A DNA stretch of 11,202 nt, taken from positions 1 through 11,202 of IMG/VR virus record IMGVR_UViG_2698536573_000001; one strand, 5' to 3'. Below are positions 1 to 11,202 of this stretch, in pieces (the first letter of the stretch is position 1; each line of letters opens with the position of its first letter). Below the pieces are notes generated by a model. The model was not told the DNA's origin. It did no database searches and saw nothing but the letters and a program-made list of their open reading frames with translations. The stretch comes from a virus (Monodnaviria > Loebvirae > Hofneiviricota > Faserviricetes > Tubulavirales > Inoviridae). Made by a program: the position numbers and the translations under genes.

Positions 1-384
1 TTACCTAATTTCCTGAGTTTCGAGGTAATCTTTCAACACCGTAAAAGTGAAAGCAGATTTGCTTATGCAATGATCAGTTGCCAAAGACCACGCATGGAGT
101 ACCCCAGGAACCTGAGCTGGACACTTGGCAGATGCATAATGGAAGCAAATATATTTGATTAATTGGTTGCTGATTTTATCCTGACGAAAGTGGGCATAGC
201 AGCGGCTTCCTGAATAATCGAATACCCAACTGTCACTTGTTGAGCTGATATATTTGTCATCAAAATGATCTGCCGATTTAAGATAAATACTAACTGGTAT
301 ATTAACCTTTAAAATACTCTCAACAAATACAGGTGTGTAAATGTTGCTGTTCGACGCATTTAACTGTTTATTGATTCGACTCAT
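1..384 (-). CDS. hypothetical Cys/His-rich protein, co-oriented with and overlapping the 3' end of the recombinase gene
   Basis: ORF track frame 1..408. I place the start at the ATG at 382..384 (MSRINKQ...) because GGAG lies 6 nt upstream on the minus strand; the ATG at 406..408 has no Shine-Dalgarno. It overlaps the recombinase stop (368..370) by 17 nt, suggesting an operon. Several Cys/His residues in the C-terminal half; no family recognised. Confidence 0.4.
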   Translation of the reverse strand: MSRINKQLNASNSNIYTPVFVESILKVNIPVSIYLKSADHFDDKYISSTSDSWVFDYSGSRCYAHFRQDKISNQLIKYICFHYASAKCPAQVPGVLHAWSLATDHCISKSAFTFTVLKDYLETQEIR

Positions 385-1834
385 ATGCACTCCATTCATC
401 GCATACATGGGAAAAGGTTGATTTCAGGGCTTCGTTATCAATCACAATTCGCTGAAGATTGGCCGTATTAGCCTGCTGAGATAGAAATCTTTTAGCGTAA
501 AGATCAGGCATATGGCTATTGTGACTCCAACCGCCAAGTAGCCGTAATTCATCCTTGGCTTCATCCATCAATCCAACGATAGAAAAGTCTATGGCTGCCA
601 AGTGTGAGTTGGCCTTAATTTTTTGAAGTTTATCACGATAAATACGTTGAAGTGTTAAATAAGCCCAAGTATGCCGCGTTATATGAGGCGAGATGCTTTC
701 AATGGCATCATAATATTCATCTTTTTTATATTCAGGATACTGCACACTCATAATGTCATCAATACGGGTAAAGATATCATAGACTGCATGGTATGACAGT
801 GGCGGATGTAGTCTTTGGGTGGAAGTGAACAGAAAACTATGGGAGGCTTGAGGGCGGATTTTATGGATATATATATTTAGAAAATGAAAGTCCAGTTTAT
901 CTAATGCCAGCACCCGGTTTGCATAAACATTTTTTAATGAAGGCAATCTTTTTCGTTGATCCGAAACGTCGTCATCTACTGTGGTCACAATCAGGCTGAA
1001 CTGATCCCCTCGGAGATTTGGTTTGATCGAATGACACTCCAAAAGCAGTAATTCACTGACACGCAATCCGTAATTTAAAAGCAATCTGCAAATCAGAAAA
1101 TTACGTAGCTGGATTTCACCAGCGGGGAAGGGATTGAGTGGGTTTTTCTTTGAAATTGAACCGGGTGTAATGATTTGGTAAAAAGCCATGACCATCTCAG
1201 CAGTCAGACTTCGAAAGCGTTTATGGGTCGTGCCATTGTTCATCTGACGAGAATGGGTAAGAGTACGGAATTCTGCCTTATGTATCGATAAACGTCCCGT
1301 TAACTGCGTGGCAAGTCGTGTAAGCTCTTTAGGCGTGCCATCTATATATCTCGGCGAGATATACGTGTTAATCAAATATCTGATAAAACGAATAACCGAA
1401 TGTACATGCCTGATATTTGTACAACGTTGAGGCGTGGTCTGCGTAGTAGACCTTATGGTTAACGCTGGTACATATAAATGCGTATTTTCCAGATAATGAA
1501 AAAAGGCTGTAAGTTCATCAATGGCAATCAATGGATTGTGGTTCGAGGAATAGAAACTGAAGCAAAAAGTCACACCATGTTTCTGGTGCCAGAATTCATA
1601 GAAAAACTTGAGCGCTTGAAGTGAAGCGGATTGCGTGGCTGATGAACGCAAAGCAAGATGGTCGATAAGATATATTAACGGATATAAAAGCGGCTGGCGC
1701 GTGTGAGTATCCATCAGTGCCCATAAACGCTGCCGTTGGTTGATATTGAGTTGTGTAAGTATGAACACGCGGCACTTAACCTTATCAATGGTGTGGATAT
1801 GAACAAAGTAACCGACAAACATAACGTCCTGCAA
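368..1834 (-). CDS. tyrosine-type site-specific recombinase (phage-integrase family) with a long unassigned N-terminal extension
   Basis: 488-aa ORF. The C-terminal half carries the ordered tyrosine-recombinase signature: Arg in GLRVSELLLL, His-x-x-Arg in HITRHTWAY, then LGGWSH and the catalytic Tyr in MPDLYAKR. The first ~250 aa are unassigned. Track start is TTG at 1832..1834; the first ATG is 1820..1822; neither has a clear Shine-Dalgarno, so the start is uncertain. Confidence 0.75.
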   Translation of the reverse strand: MQDVMFVGYFVHIHTIDKVKCRVFILTQLNINQRQRLWALMDTHTRQPLLYPLIYLIDHLALRSSATQSASLQALKFFYEFWHQKHGVTFCFSFYSSNHNPLIAIDELTAFFHYLENTHLYVPALTIRSTTQTTPQRCTNIRHVHSVIRFIRYLINTYISPRYIDGTPKELTRLATQLTGRLSIHKAEFRTLTHSRQMNNGTTHKRFRSLTAEMVMAFYQIITPGSISKKNPLNPFPAGEIQLRNFLICRLLLNYGLRVSELLLLECHSIKPNLRGDQFSLIVTTVDDDVSDQRKRLPSLKNVYANRVLALDKLDFHFLNIYIHKIRPQASHSFLFTSTQRLHPPLSYHAVYDIFTRIDDIMSVQYPEYKKDEYYDAIESISPHITRHTWAYLTLQRIYRDKLQKIKANSHLAAIDFSIVGLMDEAKDELRLLGGWSHNSHMPDLYAKRFLSQQANTANLQRIVIDNEALKSTFSHVCDEWSAYESNQ

Positions 1835-1913
1835 GAAGAAGATAGAGGGGTAGGTAAGTGTATGATTAATCGTATCCTGTGGCCGGTTATGAACTAAATG
1901 ACCGACGGACTAA

Positions 1914-1941
1914 ATTTAACATAATATACATTATGCGCACC
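1914..1941 (-). other. dif: dif-type XerC/XerD recombination site: XerC arm 1931..1941, central region 1925..1930, XerD arm 1914..1924
   Basis: Plus strand reads ATTTAACATAATATACATTATGCGCACC. Its reverse complement is GGTGCGCATAATGTATATTATGTTAAAT, which matches the E. coli-type dif sequence as I recall it at 28 of 28 positions (GGTGCGCATAA / TGTATA / TTATGTTAAAT). Confidence 0.85.
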
Positions 1942-2081
1942 AATGGTAAGGATGGCAGAATCTGGCGGGAATCGTTGACACTGGCCGTCAACTGGCTACT
2001 ATCGACAGTGATTCAAAATCATCCGTTTCTCCAAACGAATCAGAATCAAATGTCTGTCAGCAGTAAGTGAACGGCCTGACC

Positions 2082-2330
2082 TCACCAATCAGGCCTGTTC
2101 ATCCAGTTAGTTGGTAAATCTGTACCTGATACACGAGAATCAAACACCACTTCTTCAGTGCCATCACCATGATGCCGGATAATCTGGTAACCGGATTGCG
2201 GGTTCTGGCTCTCAGCTTCATAAGCAGCCCGGAATGCTGGATCTTTGAGAAGCATCACTTTCAGCTCCTGATGTGTCATGAATTTTTCCATGATAAGCCC
2301 CGATGAATGCTGCCGCGCCGAATCAGCCAT
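2082..2330 (-). CDS. hypothetical small protein (cargo position between secretin and dif)
   Basis: 82-codon ORF co-oriented with the phage operon. No convincing Shine-Dalgarno at the first ATG (2328..2330); internal ATGs at 2289..2291 and 2277..2279 are alternative starts, so the real product may be ~65-69 aa. The segment ELKVMLLKDPAFRAAYEAE resembles N-termini of some antitoxin-like regulators, but no HTH follows. Coding status uncertain. Confidence 0.35.
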   Translation of the reverse strand: MADSARQHSSGLIMEKFMTHQELKVMLLKDPAFRAAYEAESQNPQSGYQIIRHHGDGTEEVVFDSRVSGTDLPTNWMNRPDW

Positions 2331-2452
2331 AACGCTGAAAATGGAAACTGTACGGCTTGGCCAACCCCGGACAGCAACAAAACAAGTTTTGTCACTGACC
2401 GGCGTTATCTTTCAAAACAGACAGTTAACGATTTTTTGTCTGGTGTTTATGC

Positions 2453-2479
2453 GTGAAATTTCGTGCGTACGAAATTCAC
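2453..2479. repeat. 27-bp imperfect palindrome at the 3' end of the basic-protein ORF
   Basis: Arms GTGAAATTTCG (2453..2463) and CGAAATTCAC (2470..2479) pair with one bulged base around the centre TGCGTA. No U-tract follows on either strand, so it is unlikely to be an intrinsic terminator; more likely a protein-binding or recombination-related site. Confidence 0.5.
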
Positions 2480-2724
2480 CACCAATAAACAAACGGACGA
2501 TGACTGACCGGAAAAGCAATGCCGTCAGCATCATGACCACGCATTACCTGATTGAGAAGCCTTCTGACTTCACGGCGCTCAGGCCTGGTCATCATCATAT
2601 TGCGATACCAGGACGGCGATTTATCAAACCATCTGGCACAACTGGCAAAATGTGAACCTACACGACGATAAGACTTAAGGCGGCCACCGGGAAGTCGGTC
2701 ACGCGCCTTATTTTTTACAGACAT
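2476..2724 (-). CDS. hypothetical small basic (Arg-rich) protein, possible DNA-binding accessory protein
   Basis: 82-aa ORF. ATG at 2722..2724 with GAGGA 7-8 nt upstream on the minus strand. Same orientation as the phage operon, 88 nt downstream of the secretin stop. Arg/Lys- and Trp-rich; no family recognised. Confidence 0.5.
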   Translation of the reverse strand: MSVKNKARDRLPGGRLKSYRRVGSHFASCARWFDKSPSWYRNMMMTRPERREVRRLLNQVMRGHDADGIAFPVSHRPFVYWW

Positions 2725-2812
2725 AATAAATCCTCTAAGTAACTGAATACCTAGAAGATGTCGTACTGTTCATACCCCATAAAAGTTAACGCCATAATAA
2801 AAATCCATACAA

Positions 2813-4057
2813 TCAGTTCAGGTTGTCCCGGAACAGTTCACCGCTCCTCGCGGCGCTGCGGGGCGTCGCCCTGCTCCGGTCAACCTTTCTGACCTGAAGC
2901 ATCACCATAATATCAGTCTTGTTGCTTTCACTGGTACGGGAACCGAAGAAGCTCCAGCCGGAACTGGCCTTACTGTCTTTCTGTTCAGCAAGGCCACCAA
3001 GTAAAATAATATCACCATCTGCAAGGCTGACTTCGGTTGTTACATCACGCTTGATAAGGGTTGGCGAGTTATTGACGCCGGTTTCAGTGGTCACAAAGTT
3101 GGAAAGCTGCTGCTGAATCTTGAGATCCATTGTCCGACTTTTGATTGATGGCGTTACGTTAAACAAAACACCGCTGGAACGATATTCAACGGATTGCGTG
3201 GTCGTATTGTTATTCACCGTAACACTGCCCAGTACTGGCACATCAGAGCCGACTGAAAAAGACGCTGAGGCATTATTTTTTACCCGTAGTCGTGGCGCAC
3301 TGACAACAGTAAAACGACTGTCGGTTTTAAGCAGATTGAAAATGGCATCAATGGAGCCGGTTCGAATATTGATAAAATTATCCAGTCCGGCAGCACCAAC
3401 TGAAATATTGAATTTATCAGACAGAATTTTAGCCGCTAAAAGAATGCCGGAGCCGTCAGACTGCGAGGTCTGAACCTCAAAAACATAACCAGAAACAACC
3501 ACTTCATCACTCATCGTATCCAGCGAAGTGACCAGTGTTTTCAGGATGGCGATATCCTCTTTCGTACCATAATAAACCAGAATATCACCGGTTCGATTAA
3601 TGTAGTTGCTTGCCCCTGATGAACCTTTTAGCGAATCGTCAGAAATCACGGCTCCACTGTTATTGAAGGAGCCTGAAACGTAGCCGCCAAGAATATCAGA
3701 CAGGTAGGCAACAGAACGGTACTGAGGCGTATAAGTCCATGTATAACGTGGCTTAACCGGCTCTTTCGGCGTATAGGGCGCGATAAAATCAACACCCTTT
3801 TTCGTCCATATTCGAATGTTCATATTGCCAAGATAACGGGTTACAAATTCCCGTTCATCAATATCAGGTGTTAACCTGAATGTAATCATTCGTTCATCAT
3901 TAACAAGCTGTGGATCTAGCATATACGGGACTTTAAGCACCTCACTATAAATAAGAGAAATAGCCTCCGGTAGCTTGACTTTATTTAATTCAAGCTCTGA
4001 CCCTGCGAAAGCACATGAAGAAAATAGTAGCGTTAATGCGAGTAAAATCTTTTTCAT
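2813..4057 (-). CDS. secretin, filamentous-phage pIV-like outer-membrane export channel
   Basis: 414 aa. N-terminal signal peptide MKKILLALTLLFSSCAFA. C-terminal secretin-domain hallmarks (SAPRLRVKNN..., PTLIKRDVTTEVSLADGDIILLGGL). ATG at 4055..4057 overlaps the Zot-like stop TAA (4057..4059) by 1 nt, indicating translational coupling. Confidence 0.9.
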   Translation of the reverse strand: MKKILLALTLLFSSCAFAGSELELNKVKLPEAISLIYSEVLKVPYMLDPQLVNDERMITFRLTPDIDEREFVTRYLGNMNIRIWTKKGVDFIAPYTPKEPVKPRYTWTYTPQYRSVAYLSDILGGYVSGSFNNSGAVISDDSLKGSSGASNYINRTGDILVYYGTKEDIAILKTLVTSLDTMSDEVVVSGYVFEVQTSQSDGSGILLAAKILSDKFNISVGAAGLDNFINIRTGSIDAIFNLLKTDSRFTVVSAPRLRVKNNASASFSVGSDVPVLGSVTVNNNTTTQSVEYRSSGVLFNVTPSIKSRTMDLKIQQQLSNFVTTETGVNNSPTLIKRDVTTEVSLADGDIILLGGLAEQKDSKASSGWSFFGSRTSESNKTDIMVMLQVRKVDRSRATPRSAARSGELFRDNLN

Positions 4058-5082
4058 TATTTTTTCCCCGTATAAAGCGTCACACGCTCACCATCAATAA
4101 TTCCGCTCATCAACATCCCTTTGTAATTAAAACTGGATGCAGGAACGGCACGCAAAACACCGGCACCGTTAACAAGAATCACAAACGCCCTGCCTTCACT
4201 GGTCATTCTCCCTGATATACGCCACTCGGTTGAAAGTGGCGGTTCAGCTGGTTCTGAGGGAGTATCTGGTGCTGGAGTAGCAGCGGAAGAACGAAACATG
4301 GCCGCATCACGTACATCTGTTGTAGCCAAATCTGGCGAGGGATCGCTTCGGCCAAACGTGCTGAAAAATGAGTAAATCAGCCAGCCTGACCCGATAAACA
4401 TCAATGGAAAAAGCACAAGAAAGAACCTGACTTTGCCAGAATTCCAGATGCTCTGGCGTTTATCTGTCTGCTTTTCATTACCGTTATTTCCTTCATAGCT
4501 TTTATAAAGTTCAAAAATATCAGGGTTATATTTATTGCGATAACTGGTGACGAGGTTGCTTTTATAGATTTTGTGGCCTGAATATACGTCAATGCAGTAA
4601 TGATTATTCAGGCCCAACGCTTTCAGCTTGCGCATCCGGTAAGTTGTTTCTATTTTGTCTTTCAGAAAGCGAGCAATATTAGAAAGTGACTGATTTACAA
4701 TAACCAAATCACAGCTAATACCCGTTTCAGGGTGCGTAAAATGACGATGTTCAGCAATAAATGATTTCTTCTCAGCCGTCATATCCTTATCGCTACCGAA
4801 GATTCGCCATGCTTCATCAATAACAATTAAATCACCAAACTGGCAAAAGCTCCCTTCCCCACCTTTAAAAGGAAAGAAATCTGCTTTAAGCACATCATCA
4901 TTATCCACAACAATAATTTCTCCCGTTGCATCAGGATAACGTTCGGTGATTTTATCTTTTTGTAAACCATAAATGTTCGTCACAACTCTCCGGCCGCTGG
5001 TAAATGCAGGAATAATGACATTGCAAACGGCTTCATAACTTTTTCCTGAGCCGGGTATGCCAATATATGCAGAAATAGCCAT
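4057..5082 (-). CDS. Zot-like assembly ATPase (filamentous-phage pI family)
   Basis: 341 aa. Walker A GIPGSGKS at residues 8-15, Walker B-like LIVIDEAW, and a single transmembrane segment (FFLVLFPLMFIGSGWLIYSFF) before a Pro/Ser-rich C-terminal region, as in pI/Zot. ATG at 5080..5082 lies 3 nt after the upstream gene's stop. Confidence 0.9.
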   Translation of the reverse strand: MAISAYIGIPGSGKSYEAVCNVIIPAFTSGRRVVTNIYGLQKDKITERYPDATGEIIVVDNDDVLKADFFPFKGGEGSFCQFGDLIVIDEAWRIFGSDKDMTAEKKSFIAEHRHFTHPETGISCDLVIVNQSLSNIARFLKDKIETTYRMRKLKALGLNNHYCIDVYSGHKIYKSNLVTSYRNKYNPDIFELYKSYEGNNGNEKQTDKRQSIWNSGKVRFFLVLFPLMFIGSGWLIYSFFSTFGRSDPSPDLATTDVRDAAMFRSSAATPAPDTPSEPAEPPLSTEWRISGRMTSEGRAFVILVNGAGVLRAVPASSFNYKGMLMSGIIDGERVTLYTGKK

Positions 5083-5085
5083 AAC

Positions 5086-5373
5086 TCACCCTATAACAGG
5101 AATACGTCGAATAATAAAACGAGTAGCCATTGCGGAGATAATCATACTAATCCCCTGTGGTAATTTACTCAGGTTAATGAAGTACCAGAATCCGTCTGAT
5201 AAATTGGCAAACAGCGATGAGAGATTGCTTGAATCTGGCAGTAACTCAACAAGGATTTCAACGAAGCCCTGGACTACAAAATACAGCGCAAAGAATACGA
5301 CGAATTTAATAATCAATGACCGGAATACAAAACCTAACAAAGTATTTAATGCACTAATCAGAATCCCAAACAT
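5086..5373 (-). CDS. minor coat protein, pVI-like
   Basis: 95-aa hydrophobic protein with multiple TM segments, located between the pIII-like and pI genes as in Ff phages. Strong RBS AAAGGAG 7 nt upstream of ATG 5371..5373. Assignment rests on position and composition. Confidence 0.6.
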   Translation of the reverse strand: MFGILISALNTLLGFVFRSLIIKFVVFFALYFVVQGFVEILVELLPDSSNLSSLFANLSDGFWYFINLSKLPQGISMIISAMATRFIIRRIPVIG

Positions 5374-5385
5374 AGTTGCACTCCT

Positions 5386-7098
5386 TTAGGCACTCAGAAT
5401 AATACGGAGCGCAACAAATCCCCATATAATCAGAAAAATGGTTTCTACGGCGCTTCTGTTCTGCTCAATTAACGGACAATGGGAGTCAATTCTGTACTGG
5501 TGATTAAACACGCTGAATTCAACAACGGGGCAGGATGCTGAACGAGAGCCGATGTTAAATTCGTTTGTAAAAGGCAACAAGTTAATAATTGGCGTTAAAA
5601 TATCTCTTGCCGTTGGCGTTTCTTCAAGCTCAGGCTCTTTTACACCGGGATCTTCTCCCAAATCTATATTGCCATTATTTCCAGTGTCAGACCCTGAGTT
5701 GTTATTAATGGTAATATCAATATTGACGTCAGCCCCTGCACTGTCAGATACAGGTGAAAGCATATCTAATAACGTTGGAGATAGCCTAAGTTCCGACATC
5801 GCAGAAGTTACTTCAGCCGGTGAAACCTCTTTAAACGGTAAGCCGTTATAATCGGCATTAACGGCAGCTTCAGACCACAGCTCGTTAATCATGTCGGCAA
5901 GAAGTGCTGGCGATACACTAACACTATCAAGATACTCCAGATAATCAATCATGGACTCAATATTTCCGGCCTCCAGTACTTCCGTCATGGCTTTATATTT
6001 GGTATTGGTCCAGATAGTAAGCTCACTCTTTTCATCAATATCTTTTGCGGTGTAATCCTCTTTTTCAGGAACGGCGCAAATCGTCGAATATCCACCATTT
6101 GACTGATTAGTCGTTTTACAAGGCGTGTTGTGATACTGATATTGCTTGCCTGCTGTTAAATAAGCAACGCTGTAATACATGGGAAGCCCTGCTACATTTT
6201 CATACATGGGAATACCTGCGGGAAATGAAGATGCGGCCGGGTTGCTATACAAGTGTGTAATCTCAGGTATTTCATAAAATGAGGAAGGATAAGTAAACTT
6301 ATAATTCTGTTCAGTAAAGGATACATCTCCATTACTGTTGACAACTTTATTCGTCACAGTGCGTTCAAAATTCGTTAGTGTTTCAGTATAAGTACGCGAG
6401 TTATAGTCATTAAGATAATTTCTGGCAATTTCAGTTGGATTATCACCATAGTAATAAATTAGCTCTTTCGAATCCTGATAATAATAAAGCGCATTATCTG
6501 GCGTGGAATATCCTGTTTCAACACCTACAACTGGAGAACCCGCATCCACATTATTACGACTAACATGAAGGATTACCGGACTTAATTCCTGTGGTTCAAA
6601 ATTAACGGTTATCGTCTTACTTTCACCACTTTGACCACTGTACGTTACTTCATATAAATTATCGGAAATCTTTTTACCGTTAGTCATTACCATTACCGAG
6701 CCGTCAGATGAACTCAAAGAAGACGGAACAAAAGATGATACAGCAGCAGCAATACCCGCCCACGTTGCAACACCGCTCATTTTGTATGATGAGGCAGCAG
6801 GCAAGTATTCGGCAGCATTAGCCGCAGCGCGGCCAACAAAAACACGGGTTGCTGTAAGCTGTGATACCGTATAAATCGCATCATTGGCAGCAAAGCGACG
6901 AACAAGCACCCGGCCAACGACTTTAGGAATAACAGCCCGCGCAGCCACTGCTGCAATTGCTGGTACAAATGAATATGAATATCGGGGAAAGGAAACCCAG
7001 AGAAAGGAAAAAATAAAGGAATAAACCGTCAGCCTCTTAGCCCAAGAATAACGACATAAGCTGAGACGATCCCCCATAAAAGGGAACCCAATTTCCAT
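5386..7098 (-). CDS. adsorption / minor coat protein, pIII-like
   Basis: 570 aa. Gly/Asn-rich linker (NNNSGSDTGNNGNIDLGEDPG), C-terminal membrane anchor (TIFLIIWGFVALRIILSA), position directly after the major coat gene. GGAG 8 nt upstream of ATG 7096..7098. An internal Met at 6778..6780 begins a signal-peptide-like stretch (MSGVATWAGIAAAVSSFVPSS), so the true N-terminus is uncertain. Confidence 0.65.
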   Translation of the reverse strand: MEIGFPFMGDRLSLCRYSWAKRLTVYSFIFSFLWVSFPRYSYSFVPAIAAVAARAVIPKVVGRVLVRRFAANDAIYTVSQLTATRVFVGRAAANAAEYLPAASSYKMSGVATWAGIAAAVSSFVPSSLSSSDGSVMVMTNGKKISDNLYEVTYSGQSGESKTITVNFEPQELSPVILHVSRNNVDAGSPVVGVETGYSTPDNALYYYQDSKELIYYYGDNPTEIARNYLNDYNSRTYTETLTNFERTVTNKVVNSNGDVSFTEQNYKFTYPSSFYEIPEITHLYSNPAASSFPAGIPMYENVAGLPMYYSVAYLTAGKQYQYHNTPCKTTNQSNGGYSTICAVPEKEDYTAKDIDEKSELTIWTNTKYKAMTEVLEAGNIESMIDYLEYLDSVSVSPALLADMINELWSEAAVNADYNGLPFKEVSPAEVTSAMSELRLSPTLLDMLSPVSDSAGADVNIDITINNNSGSDTGNNGNIDLGEDPGVKEPELEETPTARDILTPIINLLPFTNEFNIGSRSASCPVVEFSVFNHQYRIDSHCPLIEQNRSAVETIFLIIWGFVALRIILSA

Positions 7099-7162
7099 AA
7101 TTCAATCTCCATAATAACCTCAAGTAAAACGGGCGATATTGCATCGCCCATGAATAATGAAT

Positions 7163-7396
7163 TTATGCGGATTTAACGGTACGCAATACCCAGCGAACGC
7201 CAGCGACACCGGCATAAAGTGTTACCAGTGAAGCAGCAACGGCCATAATCGCAACCAGAACTGTACTGAAATCAATGCTGTTCGTCAGCGGCGATAAATC
7301 AACACCACTTGATGCCGCTCCTTCTGCAGCGAAAGTCGCGCCAGAAACAGCCATTAATGCAGGTACAGCCAGAAAACTAACGATTTTTTTAAACAT
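7163..7396 (-). CDS. major coat protein, pVIII-like
   Basis: 77 aa. Signal peptide MFKKIVSFLAVPALMAVSGATFA, then an acidic/amphipathic N-terminal part, a hydrophobic helix (VLVAIMAVAASLVTLYAGVAGV) and a basic C-terminus (RWVLRTVKSA). GGAG 9 nt upstream of ATG 7394..7396. Confidence 0.75.
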   Translation of the reverse strand: MFKKIVSFLAVPALMAVSGATFAAEGAASSGVDLSPLTNSIDFSTVLVAIMAVAASLVTLYAGVAGVRWVLRTVKSA

Positions 7397-7430
7397 AACT
7401 CTATCTCCATTACATTTTAAAGGTTCGCAT

Positions 7431-7682
7431 TCAAGCAGTACGAACCATCTTTATTACCTGTCCCACACCTACAGAAAAAAGCCAGAGCAGCAGGACAGAG
7501 CCAAAACCTAATGTCCAGTAATTTCCCATTGCAGAATAATCAATTTGATGAAATGGTTCAGAACGTACCATTATTGCCTGACATTCTTTTGCATTGTTCG
7601 CATTACATAAATAACCTTCAATACGGTAACCATTTTCAGGAATATGATTATCAAACTGAATATCGAAACCTGATGTATCCAT
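7431..7682 (-). CDS. small membrane protein with C-terminal TM helix and basic tail (minor-coat-like, pVII/pIX position)
   Basis: 83 aa. C-terminal hydrophobic helix (WTLGFGSVLLLWLFSVGVGQVI) followed by KMVRTA. The start ATG (7680..7682) lies 2 nt from the upstream gene's TGA stop (TGATTATG). Confidence 0.5.
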   Translation of the reverse strand: MDTSGFDIQFDNHIPENGYRIEGYLCNANNAKECQAIMVRSEPFHQIDYSAMGNYWTLGFGSVLLLWLFSVGVGQVIKMVRTA

Positions 7683-7684
7683 AA

Positions 7685-8002
7685 TCAGCCTTTTATTTCA
7701 GTAATGCCGCCATCTGATGAAATGTTATAAGTTACTCCTTCCCTCCCCTCCATTGACCAGACGCGAACATATACAGGTATCTGGACTAACTTACCGATAA
7801 AATTATTTGCCTGATTCATTACACCGGCATTAACAAGAGCCTGAGATACACGAATAATAATCTGGTCTTGCTTAGTGCCACCAAAACCATCAGGAATCTC
7901 TAAGCCAACACCAATTTCATTATAGTATCCCTGACCATTGACCTTATTACGCTGGCGAGCACCAAGCATTTTACCTTTTACAAAAAGACCATAATTAGAC
8001 AT
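7685..8002 (-). CDS. putative ssDNA-binding protein (gV / RstB position)
   Basis: 105-aa ORF immediately downstream of the replication initiator. Strong RBS AAAGGAGAG 4 nt before ATG 8000..8002. Functional call is by position only; I see no clear similarity to Ff gV. Confidence 0.4.
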   Translation of the reverse strand: MSNYGLFVKGKMLGARQRNKVNGQGYYNEIGVGLEIPDGFGGTKQDQIIIRVSQALVNAGVMNQANNFIGKLVQIPVYVRVWSMEGREGVTYNISSDGGITEIKG

Positions 8003-8013
8003 ATCACTCTCCT

Positions 8014-9066
8014 TTAATGCCAGTTACTGGCATGTGAAATACGGTTATAATCGAAAATTAAACCTTTCTCATAAACCCATGATGGAATTTTGGCTGGTTT
8101 GGCTTCAAGAGTACGAACCAACGGAACAACGTTATTAGAATCCGGTGACTCACAATAAAAGTTAATATCTATTCCGAAAGAAAGTAATTCTTTACGGTGT
8201 CGGTAGAATGTAGGTTTCGGTAACATCTCTTTCATGTTCGCGCCCTGCTTCCACAATAAATATGTAGACTGTATTTTTCTTGGGAGATTAATTATTTTTT
8301 CATCAGTTAATATGGTATTTTGATTCATTTCTATTCTCCCTACATAGTCAGAGAATAATTTATTGGGCGTCTCAATATTCCAGCTATTACCAAGCGTAAG
8401 ATTCAAATCAATTAATTCAGTTGTTCTTAATGTTAATTCAATGCGTAATTTATCTTTTGACCAGTCCAGTAAACCAGCTTTAACGAATTCGTCTGCCATC
8501 TGGTGCCCTTTTTTGCCAGATGTATGCTCATCATATTTTGAATAAAATTTCAGGCTCCAACGACGGGAGTTTTTCCCTAAGTAAACAGTGCCACCTTTAC
8601 CACAGGCGCGACCGTGGCGAGTTTTAGCTTTAAATTCTGCGGCATATAACCATGCGCGGACATTTTCTAATGTTGACAATGAATACATGTAATTGATATC
8701 GATGCGCGAGATCTTAAATTGCCCTTCCATGACCTGCCGATAGGATGGTAGATCATGAGGAATATGCAGTAATGCCAATATTCTGGCGTAAGCTGTTAAC
8801 ACCAACCCTTGCAAATCGTCGGAACCGATAACAGAGTGACCTTGCAAAAACTTTGATGGATTACCGTCAATGTAGAGATGTGTTGCCCGACCTTCACCAT
8901 CAGATCCAACAGACCTTACTTTCATTGTGGACTCATGCGAACCGCGAACTGTCAACCGTTTTACTGTTTCCCACTCCACTGCACCGTCAGCATCGACGCT
9001 GACGACACTACCAGCCGGTAACGGTCGGTGTGTGCAAGGCAGGATTCCGGTAAACCAGTCGATCAT
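8014..9066 (-). CDS. rolling-circle replication initiation protein, filamentous-phage gII family
   Basis: 350 aa. Starts MIDWFTGILPCTH. Shares motifs with Ff gene II protein as recalled from memory (not verified): LQGHSVIG vs LQGHNVFG, ISRID, and NNVVPLVR near the C-terminus. Confidence 0.85.
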   Translation of the reverse strand: MIDWFTGILPCTHRPLPAGSVVSVDADGAVEWETVKRLTVRGSHESTMKVRSVGSDGEGRATHLYIDGNPSKFLQGHSVIGSDDLQGLVLTAYARILALLHIPHDLPSYRQVMEGQFKISRIDINYMYSLSTLENVRAWLYAAEFKAKTRHGRACGKGGTVYLGKNSRRWSLKFYSKYDEHTSGKKGHQMADEFVKAGLLDWSKDKLRIELTLRTTELIDLNLTLGNSWNIETPNKLFSDYVGRIEMNQNTILTDEKIINLPRKIQSTYLLWKQGANMKEMLPKPTFYRHRKELLSFGIDINFYCESPDSNNVVPLVRTLEAKPAKIPSWVYEKGLIFDYNRISHASNWH

Positions 9067-9237
9067 AAGTAGTCACACCCATCAAAATATGTGTCAATAG
9101 TCATTTGTGAGCAGATTGAATGGTCACAATGTAATATGCTCAGATCTGACAGTCAATACATTTGCAATGTTTAAATTGTCAGAAATGAGCATCAAATCTA
9201 ACTATTGAAAAACCACTGTTAAGATGGAGCCAAGTAG
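9067..9237. promoter_or_regulatory. divergent control region between the replication gene and the repressor gene (candidate operators, promoters or origin)
   Basis: 171-bp intergenic region with no ORF. Repeats: TGAGCA at 9108..9113 and 9186..9191 with inverted copy TGCTCA at 9137..9142; 7-bp inverted repeat TCTGACA (9145..9151) / TGTCAGA (9177..9183); direct repeat GTCAATA at 9094..9100 and 9152..9158. Promoter hexamers not assigned with confidence. Confidence 0.5.
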
Positions 9238-9684
9238 ATGGGCAACAATGAGCATGAAGTTATGGCGGACAAACAGAGAGCAGAACGTATCAAAAAGGTA
9301 ATTCTGGAACACTCGACTTATGAAGAACTGGCCGAGAAGACTGGCATTAGCGTGAGTACGCTGGTCAGGATAGCGTCCGGCAAAACTGAACCTAAATTCA
9401 GTGACATCATTCAGATAGCTAAAATTACTGGTGCAGACTTAAACACCTTAGCTTATGGCTATGCTCTTGATGTTAAAGAAGAAGCTACCGAGCGGAAGCT
9501 AATCACTTCTGCGGATGGATATACTGATGAAGAAACCACTAACGCACATAATTTCATCGTGTGGAACATCAGGACACTGGAAAAACAAGATATTCTGGCA
9601 CTCGCAAGGCAGGTTTCTGCCTTAAGTTCATACACTTACAGTACTAAAATGTTTATGAAAAAAGCGGTGTCTGGAGAAGAGTAA
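9238..9684 (+). CDS. HTH transcriptional regulator (XRE / Cro-C1 type), phage repressor-like
   Basis: 148 aa. Predicted helix-turn-helix in the N-terminal third (STYEELAEKTGISVSTLVRIASGKTEP). GGAG 8 nt upstream of ATG 9238. Divergent from the replication gene, as for filamentous-phage repressors. No Ser-Lys peptidase (LexA-like) motif in the C-terminal part. Confidence 0.8.
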   Translation: MGNNEHEVMADKQRAERIKKVILEHSTYEELAEKTGISVSTLVRIASGKTEPKFSDIIQIAKITGADLNTLAYGYALDVKEEATERKLITSADGYTDEETTNAHNFIVWNIRTLEKQDILALARQVSALSSYTYSTKMFMKKAVSGEE

Positions 9685-9712
9685 AAGGATTAACAGTCTC
9701 AGGAATGAGACA

Positions 9713-9751
9713 AACGTGCAGTATTACCAACACTGCACGTTCTTTATTGTG
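9713..9751 (+). terminator. intrinsic terminator-like hairpin downstream of the repressor gene
   Basis: Perfect 10-bp stem AACGTGCAGT (9713..9722) / ACTGCACGTT (9732..9741) with a 9-nt loop, followed by CTTTATTGTG (interrupted T-run). Confidence 0.6.
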
Positions 9752-9783
9752 CGAGTTTTGAATAGCGAAAAAGGATCAAAAGG

Positions 9784-10206
9784 ATGAGTAGAAATAACGA
9801 AACAAGCGGCGTTGAACTGGTTGTCGTGGGCGTATTTGCTTTCTGTCTGGCAGTTGTTGCCTGGCTAATGAAAACTTTCGATGTTGAATGGCAAACAGCA
9901 CTGGAAACTGCGCCTGGCCTGATAGTCTGGTTGCTTGTTGTCGGTGCGGGGATCTTTTTCGGGATCAAAATGGAAACTGGTCTTGTTCGCTGGGGTGCTC
10001 CACTTGCGATCGCCCTTCTGATTCCGGTATTCAAACCAATTCTTAAGGAAGCAGCCGGAGTTCGTGAAATGGGCGGGTTAGTTTTCGATGATATGGTTTC
10101 GTGGTACGGAACTGGCTGGGGAATGTCGCTGATGTTCTTCGGGATTCTTATCGTCGGATACGGCCTACTTTATTGGTGGCACAGAAGAAAGTCATATTAC
10201 TGGTAA
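9784..10206 (+). CDS. small integral membrane protein (about four TM helices), function unknown
   Basis: 140 aa with four hydrophobic segments (about residues 11-29, 45-62, 70-85, 112-131) and a Trp/Tyr/Arg-rich C-terminus. ATG 9784 preceded by AAGGA. Co-oriented with the repressor. GC content resembles the phage core. Confidence 0.6.
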   Translation: MSRNNETSGVELVVVGVFAFCLAVVAWLMKTFDVEWQTALETAPGLIVWLLVVGAGIFFGIKMETGLVRWGAPLAIALLIPVFKPILKEAAGVREMGGLVFDDMVSWYGTGWGMSLMFFGILIVGYGLLYWWHRRKSYYW

Positions 10207-10317
10207 CTCCGCCGCGGGAAACCACGGTAAAGTTCGGGTGTCACTGAACCCCGAACCGCAAGCGGTTAAATAGCAATCAACTATAGAGAGTAAGTCAAAA
10301 CATATAAGGGTTAAATA

Positions 10318-10785
10318 ATGACAGTATCTCTTGGCGATGTGTTTGGTGGTTTGGCGTTTTTTCTCTCAATCTATGCAACAATTAAAACCGTAAAGTTCAA
10401 TGAAAGACAAAAAGCGTTAATAGAAGCGCAAGAAAGGTTAACGAATCTCCAACTTACTAAAGAAAAAAATGAGTTGGAAAGTTCAAAGAAAGCTGATATT
10501 AGTGCAAGCATGGTCTCTGTAGGAAATAGAGAATATAAACTAAGAGTTATTAATAAAGGGAAGGTTTCTGCGAAAAATGTAAGAATAGAATTTCCCGATA
10601 ATAATTCACCAGTATCAATGAGTGACGTTAAAAGCAAATTTCCGCTTGAGTATCTCGCGACAGATCAACCAGTCGATCTCATTGCGTCAGGAGAGTTAGG
10701 TCGAGCAAGGAAATTTACTGTAAGACTAATGTGGGATGACGATTTCAAGGATGATAATGAAATTGTTTTACATATAACATATTGA
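10318..10785 (+). CDS. hypothetical membrane-anchored protein (N-terminal TM helix, predicted coiled-coil, C-terminal beta-rich domain)
   Basis: 155 aa. N-terminal hydrophobic helix (LGDVFGGLAFFLSIYATI), then a charged helical stretch (ERQKALIEAQERLTNLQLTKEKNELESSKK). AAGGG 7 nt upstream of ATG 10318. AT-rich codon usage, distinct from the phage core. Confidence 0.55.
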   Translation: MTVSLGDVFGGLAFFLSIYATIKTVKFNERQKALIEAQERLTNLQLTKEKNELESSKKADISASMVSVGNREYKLRVINKGKVSAKNVRIEFPDNNSPVSMSDVKSKFPLEYLATDQPVDLIASGELGRARKFTVRLMWDDDFKDDNEIVLHITY

Positions 10786-10830
10786 TTTAAATACACTTTA
10801 TATCGAAGCAAAACAAGTAGAGGAGTAAGG

Positions 10831-11202
10831 ATGAAAAATCAACTTTATAGCCGTCAAGGAATATACGACATAATCAGAAGCCACTATTTAAGAAACTTTC
10901 CATATACGATTGAATTTGAAGCGCTTAATGCAATAAATGAACACATTAGCCTTATAATTGATAGCGCATCAATACAAAAAAATGAAAGTGGTGAGTACGT
11001 ATTTATCAATAATAATCCTAATATGGAAGTTGATGACCCATTTGAAAGCACAGAGAGAAATCTTGCTGCTTATCTATCAAAGTCTAGTGGTGTTGAAGCG
11101 TTATTCCAAGATGTGAACGCATTACAAAAATGGTTGCTCCAATATGGATTTATCCATGGTGGTATAGCGACTGAAAAAATGCTGGTTACGAATAAACTAT
11201 AA
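10831..11202 (+). CDS. hypothetical soluble acidic protein
   Basis: 123-aa ORF ending with TAA at the window edge. Strong RBS GGAG 5 nt upstream of ATG 10831. Same AT-rich composition as the preceding gene and 45 nt downstream of it, so probably co-transcribed. Confidence 0.55.
   Translation: MKNQLYSRQGIYDIIRSHYLRNFPYTIEFEALNAINEHISLIIDSASIQKNESGEYVFINNNPNMEVDDPFESTERNLAAYLSKSSGVEALFQDVNALQKWLLQYGFIHGGIATEKMLVTNKL

Follow-up and report, generated by a model that had tools for sequence, protein, structure and literature searches.

The 11,202-bp inovirus stretch IMGVR_UViG_2698536573_000001 (hereafter the window) very probably holds one of two head-to-tail copies, the one nearer dif, of a CUS-1/YpfΦ-type filamentous phage, a CTX-type integrative mobile element exploiting Xer recombination (IMEX) that was integrated by the CTX mechanism. 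The element is a member of a described family, behaves as the CTX-type paradigm predicts, and is nothing new in kind. What was settled is the bookkeeping of the locus. The element is 9,357 bp long and present in two copies, its cargo genes are owned by the phage, and the host chromosome restarts only beside hipA. A window cut just before the phage attachment site, attP, can make a textbook IMEX seem open-ended.

The tandem array and its far boundary

The window is 100% identical to Escherichia coli O6:H16 M9682-C1 (NZ_CP024275.1 1693320..1704521, reverse strand). It was analysed within a larger locus, L001, consisting of the window and 15 kb of flank on each side; a window position is the L001 position minus 15000. 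The annotation of L001 shows a full filamentous-phage gene set twice in series, followed by hipA and hipB. The sets repeat with a period of 9,357 bp, and the two copies, L001 16942..26298 and 26299..35655, are head-to-tail and 100% identical (0 mismatches). By this period comparison copy 1 occupies window 1942..11202 and runs 96 bp further, to window-equivalent 11298; the minus strand of the window corresponds to the phage (+) strand. The true host junction is found 9,357 bp beyond the end of copy 1, beside hipA. Because the XerC arm of the copy 2 attP meets K-12-identical host sequence, the far boundary is placed at L001 35655, 18,714 bp to the right of dif.

At its left junction the array has the chromosomal dif site at 1914..1941 (minus strand), a 28/28 match to E. 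coli dif GGTGCGCATAATGTATATTATGTTAAAT. It is the sole match at ≤3 mismatches in the window and is also unique in the 41-kb locus. This dif is functional and regenerated by integration, the host XerD arm and central region having been joined to a phage XerC arm.

No partner for this site is present in the window. The XerC arm TTATGCGCACC occurs there exactly once; four further occurrences at 2 mismatches are at chance level (5 found against 2.7 expected), as are the arm-like matches from single-arm searches at 2 mismatches in general, and GCGCACC has a single occurrence. A permissive two-arm scan, which allowed a XerC arm, a spacer of 5-12 nucleotides (nt) and a XerD arm with ≤6 mismatches over 22 arm positions, returned dif alone in the window, while the same scan detected the attP sites immediately outside. 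Host right-flank sequence is absent throughout the window. The original prediction, made from the window, had reported that a partner dif-derived site was missing, and both kinds of search agree with it. A degenerate partner site within the window is ruled out by the same searches, and its option of a site too degenerate to recognise was rejected with it. The two GTTAAAT fragments it pointed to do exist, but at 10265..10271 and 10310..10316 rather than at 10266..10272 and 10309..10315. Both are without partner arms in the two-arm scan, and the heptamer is slightly enriched in the window (8 found, about 3 expected). Two of its other options, a right-hand end beyond 11202 and a tandem IMEX array, held: the first dif-like site begins at 11205, and the second identical copy follows directly after copy 1.

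Structure of attP and the junctions

The attP site is 94 bp long and begins 3 nt past window 11202. It reads GGTTCGCATAA-TGACG-TTATGCTAAAG, followed by a GC hairpin (GGCCGCTGCG…CGCAGCGGCC) and then by TTTCAACATAA-CGAGTCGTACA-TTATGCGCACC. The two-arm scan located it as pairs of dif-like sites in inverted orientation at L001 26205..26298 and 35562..35655, the two sites, A and B, being 39 nt apart within the 94 nt. In the inter-copy attP, site A (L001 26205..26231, plus strand) has 1+2 arm mismatches and a 5-nt spacer. Site B (L001 26266..26298, minus strand) has a perfect XerC arm (0+2 mismatches, both in the XerD arm) and an 11-nt spacer. The dif spacer is 6 nt, and both spacings are at odds with those of a normal duplex Xer site.

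As single-stranded DNA (ssDNA), attP folds into a forked hairpin of −33.2 kcal/mol (z −8.35; 0 of 200 shuffles were as stable). The XerC arms pair with each other and so do the XerD arms, with an asymmetric internal loop between them and the GC hairpin as a cap. The identity between dif and attP covers only 15 nt, the XerC arm plus TGTA (TACA + TTATGCGCACC on the plus strand). The central regions are TGTATA in dif and TGTACGACTCG in attP, and the matching ends after the XerC-side TGTA. With the central-region homology confined to the XerC side, only a XerC strand exchange is predicted to be productive.

These features bear on an alternative in which integration would be of the VGJΦ type, one double-stranded dif-like site (B or A) recombining reversibly with dif. 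Site B does offer a perfect XerC arm together with a good XerD arm, and a functional dif is regenerated, as with VGJΦ. The duplex central regions of 11 nt (site B) and 5 nt (site A), however, are incompatible with a normal XerCD synapse on the 6 nt of dif, and inverted, complementary and strongly folding sites are the defining arrangement of the CTX type, the class to which reviews assign CUS-1Φ and YpfΦ (PMC4246890; PMC3089051). A VGJΦ-type event is therefore considered highly improbable.

The junctions fit the CTX-type reading. At the inter-copy junction attP is followed by the phage left end (aatggtaagg…). Copy 2 is closed by an identical 94 bp, after whose XerC arm the sequence continues with aatataaaccaaggaagaatcc…. 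In K-12, which has no prophage here, the empty site is dif|aatataaaccaagg, identical to the sequence past the far XerC arm. The prophage is thus flanked by a new perfect dif at one end, while the inverted attP pair occupies the other end and the boundary between the tandem copies. A far-end hybrid site with the host XerC arm outermost had been foreseen in the original prediction. TTATGCGCACC is indeed outermost on the plus strand, and K-12-identical host DNA follows it. The checks that had been proposed gave concordant answers: the inverted dif-like half-sites of a CTX-type folded attP are present just outside the window, and the prophage-free K-12 site equals the right host flank base for base.

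Related prophages show the same arrangement. In UTI89, IAL7250 and ETEC-2264 the inverted pair is next to hipA, and a perfect dif marks the opposite side. In Yersinia pestis the inter-copy junction arm is TTATGCGCACC and the terminal junction arm is TTATGTGCACC. Because these differ, the terminal XerC arm is not derived from the phage, and the crossover maps to the boundary of the XerC arm with the central region. TTATGTGCACC appears to be the native Y. pestis arm. No recombinase or integrase was found among the 15 open reading frames (ORFs) of the 9,357-bp unit by annotation, Pfam or PHROG searches.

About 340 large conjugative plasmids, mostly IncF, carry a 70-bp, 94%-identical copy of site A and the GC hairpin without site B. 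It is found just downstream of a STM4504/CBY_0614-family gene and near MacB-type efflux genes (compared at L015 2501..2570 of IncF plasmid NZ_CP010141.1 and L001 26205..26275). The plasmid-borne copy may be a scar, or the captured cargo end, of a related phage.

Proposed mechanism of integration and replication

In the mechanism proposed below, the anatomy, junctions, fold and relatedness come from the present analysis; XerC catalysis, the ssDNA substrate, irreversibility and the rolling-circle route are taken from the CTXΦ paradigm and the literature. For CTX-type phages, reviews describe an ssDNA attP(+), XerC acting first, completion by replication, irreversible integration and rolling-circle phage production (PMC4246890; PMC3089051).

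In the (+) ssDNA of the phage, which lacks an integrase, the two inverted dif-like sites would fold into the forked hairpin. The folded attP would supply GGTGCGCATAA as its perfect XerC arm and a XerD arm close to consensus, with a central region in which 11 nt face 5 nt and pairing is largely absent. Host XerC would then swap one pair of strands with chromosomal dif, an exchange that may be stabilised by the 4 shared nt (TGTA) beside the XerC cleavage site, and replication would fix the product. The outcome would be a perfect dif restored on the XerD-arm side (1914..1941) and a duplex attP remnant on the other side, with the host XerC arm outermost. Since the duplex remnant would be unusable as a Xer substrate, integration would be irreversible. 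A second round of integration at the restored dif, or some equivalent event, would have made the tandem, in which each copy ends in a 94-bp attP.

The minus strand was assigned as the integrating (+) strand because all core phage genes are on it and because GGTGCGCATAA|TGTA… on it runs with the same polarity as the top strand of dif, the strand that XerC cleaves. Because the copies are tandem, full-length (+) circles with an intact attP would be possible. Rolling-circle replication driven by gII would start at the origin of copy 2, the copy nearer hipA, and stop at that of copy 1, nearer dif. The (+) strand displaced on the way would comprise the copy 2 core genes, the attP between the copies and the copy 1 cargo, and would close as a 9,357-nt circle. 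The tandem array, and the rearrangement junctions in the loop of a putative origin hairpin described below, support such a mechanism indirectly. An array layout of "new dif + inverted attP2/attP1", and a need for tandem copies in rolling-circle production, have been described (PMC3442271). If, as in the CTX paradigm, infectious ssDNA is regenerated only from tandem copies, this enterotoxigenic E. coli (ETEC) strain could produce a phage whose family is tied to the fitness of extraintestinal pathogenic E. coli (ExPEC) and of Y. pestis.

Several points weigh against this account. We infer XerC dependence, ssDNA integration and phage production in M9682-C1 from the paradigm. The complementary (plus) strand of attP folds about equally stably, as an inverted repeat must, and the integrating strand is therefore not identifiable by folding alone. 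For the Y. pestis arm, the only published dif found is that of CO92, a lysogen, and would itself be a regenerated site. In YpfΦ an incoming phage is reported to insert preferentially between the resident copies; this would not be expected on the classical model, and homologous recombination was proposed as the reason (PMC4266046). Finally, the copies are identical, and successive integrations, homologous recombination of the double-stranded replicative form (RF) and duplication are for that reason indistinguishable.

The last two points lead to an alternative origin of the array, by homologous (Campbell-type) recombination of a double-stranded RF or dimeric circle into one resident prophage, or by unequal sister-chromatid exchange, instead of two Xer integrations. 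Any of these routes would give copies that are 100% identical, and a circular 9.6-kb RF-like record is known in E. coli. In CTXΦ, by contrast, array copy number depends on the efficiency of integration (the endonuclease III effect), an argument in favour of successive integrations (PMC3442271). The end structure is the same by either route, so sequence cannot decide between them; a recombinational origin is regarded as the less likely, though a serious, possibility.

That the second copy is an assembly artefact, a single prophage and an extrachromosomal RF having been collapsed or expanded into a tandem, is very unlikely. Filamentous prophages do often coexist with RFs, one strain has an RF-like circle deposited as a plasmid, and 9-kb tandem repeats are difficult to assemble from short reads. 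The M9682-C1 record, however, is a finished chromosome, and the intact attP-to-left-end junction was found in 63 of 5,426 complete E. coli genomes, independent of one another, among them NU14 though not its close relative UTI89. The rearranged arrays of TW10590 and ETEC-2264, described below, have unique junctions that could not come from an RF. Tandem arrays of 2-4 copies have been shown experimentally for YpfΦ, together with inverted XerC/XerD sites and a regenerated dif (PMC4266046). Two successive CTX-type integrations, or an equivalent event, giving a genuine chromosomal array remain the preferred reading.

Relatives and comparison with known systems

The closest relatives are the CUS-1Φ (E. 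coli O18:K1:H7) and YpfΦ prophages, with which the window phage has in common dif integration, a regenerated dif, inverted XerC/XerD sites, tandem copies and gene order. YpfΦ (CUS-2) of Y. pestis NCTC5923 is 99.4-99.6% identical over window 1942..9762 (unit 1..7821) and attP, with the cargo replaced; the CUS-1-type prophage of UTI89 is 99.4% identical over window 1913..10228. In a published comparison YpfΦ and CUS-1 were ~99% identical over ~7.1 kb, shared integration at dif and had unrelated ORFs at their ends (PMC4266046). The main differences are in the cargo, which consists of 140-, 155- and 123-aa ORFs in the window, 140- and 369-aa ORFs in UTI89 and other ORFs in YpfΦ. The site A XerC arm also differs, the window variant GGTTCGCATAA being better than the GGTTCGCACAA of most relatives, as does the host, an O6:H16 ETEC strain here and ExPEC for CUS-1Φ. 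Y. pestis, Phytobacter and Erwinia tracheiphila also have the phage-specific core of site B, and Kosakonia has part of it.

A 9,565-bp circular record, NZ_CP128883.1 (L014), deposited as an untypable plasmid, represents a related phage in full, with the same gene set and an intact attP-to-left-end junction. It is most simply a replicative form. The central region of its site B, TGTGCGACTCG, shares TGT alone with dif, not TGTA, a difference that might be related to the extrachromosomal state.

CTXΦ of Vibrio cholerae is without nucleotide similarity to the window phage, and its cargo is ctxAB, where the genes here are of unknown function. The two are alike in having inverted dif-like sites that fold in (+) ssDNA, with an unpaired central region and dif homology only beside the XerC cleavage site. 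They are also alike in the regeneration of dif on one side with an inverted attP on the other, in tandem arrays, in a divergent repressor beside the replication gene, and in the location of cargo beside attP. The window phage encodes its own pIV secretin, whereas CTXΦ uses the EpsD secretin of its host. The attP also differs in size, with 39 nt between the sites of a 94-nt attP here and an attP(+) of ~150 nt in CTXΦ (PMC4246890).

Inoviruses of the UPΦ901 type, from Enterobacterales, likewise form dif-integrated tandem repeats in E. coli, with variable accessory genes near att. In gII and gV their identity with YpfΦ exceeds 85%, while the remaining genome is IKe/I2-2-related and under 20-30% identical to YpfΦ (PMC7307601). 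The window phage is not a UPΦ.

The cargo module

Three plus-strand ORFs of unknown function fill the distal end of the window. The first (9784..10206, 140 aa) has several long hydrophobic stretches, matches phrog_4174 (E 3e-85) and is common to UTI89-type variants. The second (10318..10785, 155 aa) is AT-rich, with a GC content of 0.34, and matches phrog_6723 (E 3e-75). The third (10831..11202, 123 aa) matches phrog_22661 (E 4e-86); its stop is the final codon of the window, and attP comes 3 nt on. Each ORF matches its PHROG family, all of unknown function, across the full length. No significant or informative match to Pfam, NCBIfam or PADLOC was found for them, the sole PADLOC match, at 10318..10785 (E 3e-4, 36 residues), being unconvincing. 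The GC content of the second and third is ~0.34, compared with ~0.43 for the phage.

The distal ORFs are phage-borne, since they are present in both copies and are located upstream of attP. This agrees with the original prediction, which had suggested that the genes at 9784..11202 lie inside integrated DNA. Host sequence resuming directly after 9751 or 10206, the finding it had named as contrary evidence, was not seen; only at L001 35656 does host flank begin. Divergence of other variants from the window sets in at 9762 (YpfΦ), 10206 (IAL7250) or 10228 (UTI89), and the candidate boundaries are therefore module seams inside the phage. The cargo module is bracketed by a putative origin hairpin (9714..9740) and attP.

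A putative replication origin and rearranged arrays

The hairpin at 9714..9740 (minus strand; fold z −5.0) follows the repressor gene. It has a 9-bp stem, is conserved exactly in UTI89, ETEC-2264 and Y. pestis, and reads ACGTGCAGT-GTTGGTAAT-ACTGCACGT on the phage (+) strand. Two independent rearrangement junctions fall in its loop. In ETEC-2264 (L005 16954..22450) a 1,831-bp unit consisting of 5' gV, gII and the repressor gene is repeated three times, with the junction …CAGTATT|ACCA…. In TW10590 (L012 18540..18680) two copies are joined with a period of 7,332 bp, window 9727 being fused to 2394; the 7,332-bp copy lacks the cargo, the first left-end ORF and attP. A break between 9726 and 9725 on the minus strand, GTTGGT|AATACTGCAC, would fit both junctions. 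The hairpin resembles the origin hairpin of M13, GAGTCCAC-GTTCTTTAATA-GTGGACTC, in which gII nicks after TTT.

From its conservation, its fold, the junctions in its loop and its likeness to M13, the hairpin is proposed as the gII nick site. Tentatively, and at somewhat less than even odds, it would be the (+)-strand origin with a candidate gII nick at GTTGGT|AATACTGCAC, and illegitimate gII termination at "...GT" pseudo-sites would repeatedly give rise to defective or satellite-like derivatives, later fixed in chromosomal arrays. The 1,831-bp gII-repressor mini-units of ETEC-2264, which recall RS1 of V. cholerae, and the attP-less 7,332-bp copy of TW10590 would be examples. If the proposal is true, origin-to-origin replication across heterologous arrays would explain why swappable cargo is bounded exactly by the origin and attP. 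The hairpin may also act as the terminator of the repressor gene. No description of an origin, or of such derivatives, for CUS-1/YpfΦ was found in the literature.

Gene content of the phage core

The core module of the Inoviridae is complete and its genes are all co-oriented. PHROG matches were obtained for the pIV, Zot, replication and pIII-like proteins, and the others were assigned by annotation and gene order. At the left end, on the minus strand like the rest of the core, are two small conserved ORFs of unknown function. The first, at 2082..2330, is annotated in RefSeq as 65 aa (2082..2279) and matches phrog_6642 (E 1e-53); the second, at 2476..2724, encodes 82 aa (WP_001399975.1) and has no family match. 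They are followed by the pIV-type secretin for virion export (2813..4057; phrog_1012, "protein IV of M13", E 8e-138) and the pI/Zot-like assembly ATPase (4057..5082; phrog_197, Zot-like, E 8e-94). Next is a pVI-like minor coat protein (5086..5373; DUF2523, RefSeq annotation). The pIII-like receptor-binding minor coat protein (5386..7098; 520 aa from the annotated start), identified by phrog_3942 (E 3e-252) and gene order, is puvA in CUS-1 (PMC4266046).

The 77-aa product of 7163..7396 is the probable major coat protein, judged from its size, the inovirus gene order and annotation. An 83-aa small membrane protein (7431..7682; RefSeq "membrane protein") is followed by the gV-like single-stranded-DNA-binding protein (7685..8002; RefSeq "DNA-binding protein"), assigned also by its position after gII. 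The gII-type rolling-circle replication initiator (8014..9066) matches phrog_702, a replication protein (E 1e-119), and is annotated as II/X family. The divergent helix-turn-helix repressor (9238..9684, plus strand; Pfam HTH_3, E 2e-9; phrog_3557) is an analogue of RstR of CTXΦ (PMC4266046). There were no Rfam matches.

A 48-bp stretch of gII (8271..8318) matches positions 5058..5105 of phage If1 at 96% identity; If1 does not integrate, and the matching part belongs to its 1.2-kb "major intergenic region". This is the only similarity in the phage collection searched, which does not contain CUS-1/YpfΦ.

The left flank and the chromosome around dif

Two overlapping tyrosine-recombinase genes (1..1834, minus strand), identified by annotation and by Pfam and NCBIfam matches, adjoin the XerD arm of dif. 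They belong to a separate island outside the 9,357-bp unit. The genes are divergent and encode proteins of 466 and 516 aa, the distal gene being truncated by IS1 in M9682-C1. They were ruled out as the integration machinery of the phage, being outside the repeat unit and part of an island common to ETEC strains with different prophage arrangements. The island was also seen at L004 10032..15763, L005 1..10763 and L012 1..10238, and in intact versions genes for 788-aa and 144-aa proteins of unknown function come next. Some ETEC left islands carry genes like those of cyclic-oligonucleotide-based anti-phage signalling systems (CBASS; nucleotidyltransferase, ThiF/E1-like, MPN/JAB and exonuclease) together with restriction/HNH genes. 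A search at ≤5 mismatches in the loci compared detected no dif-like partner beyond the island.

The flank of dif on the XerD-arm side is wholly different in K-12, UTI89 and ETEC up to the outer base of the arm (window 1850..1913 compared with L002 7940..8001 and L003 2910..2972). Because this side is variable while the XerC side (hipA) is conserved, the XerD-side flank of dif is a hot spot of variation. At L001 14015..15384 a truncated yneK, IS1 and a truncated integrase gene are juxtaposed, with yneK/ydeA/mar on the XerD-arm side of dif. On the K-12 map these genes are presumably on the hipA side. The arrangement suggests an IS1-mediated inversion in the source genome that included dif and the prophage array.

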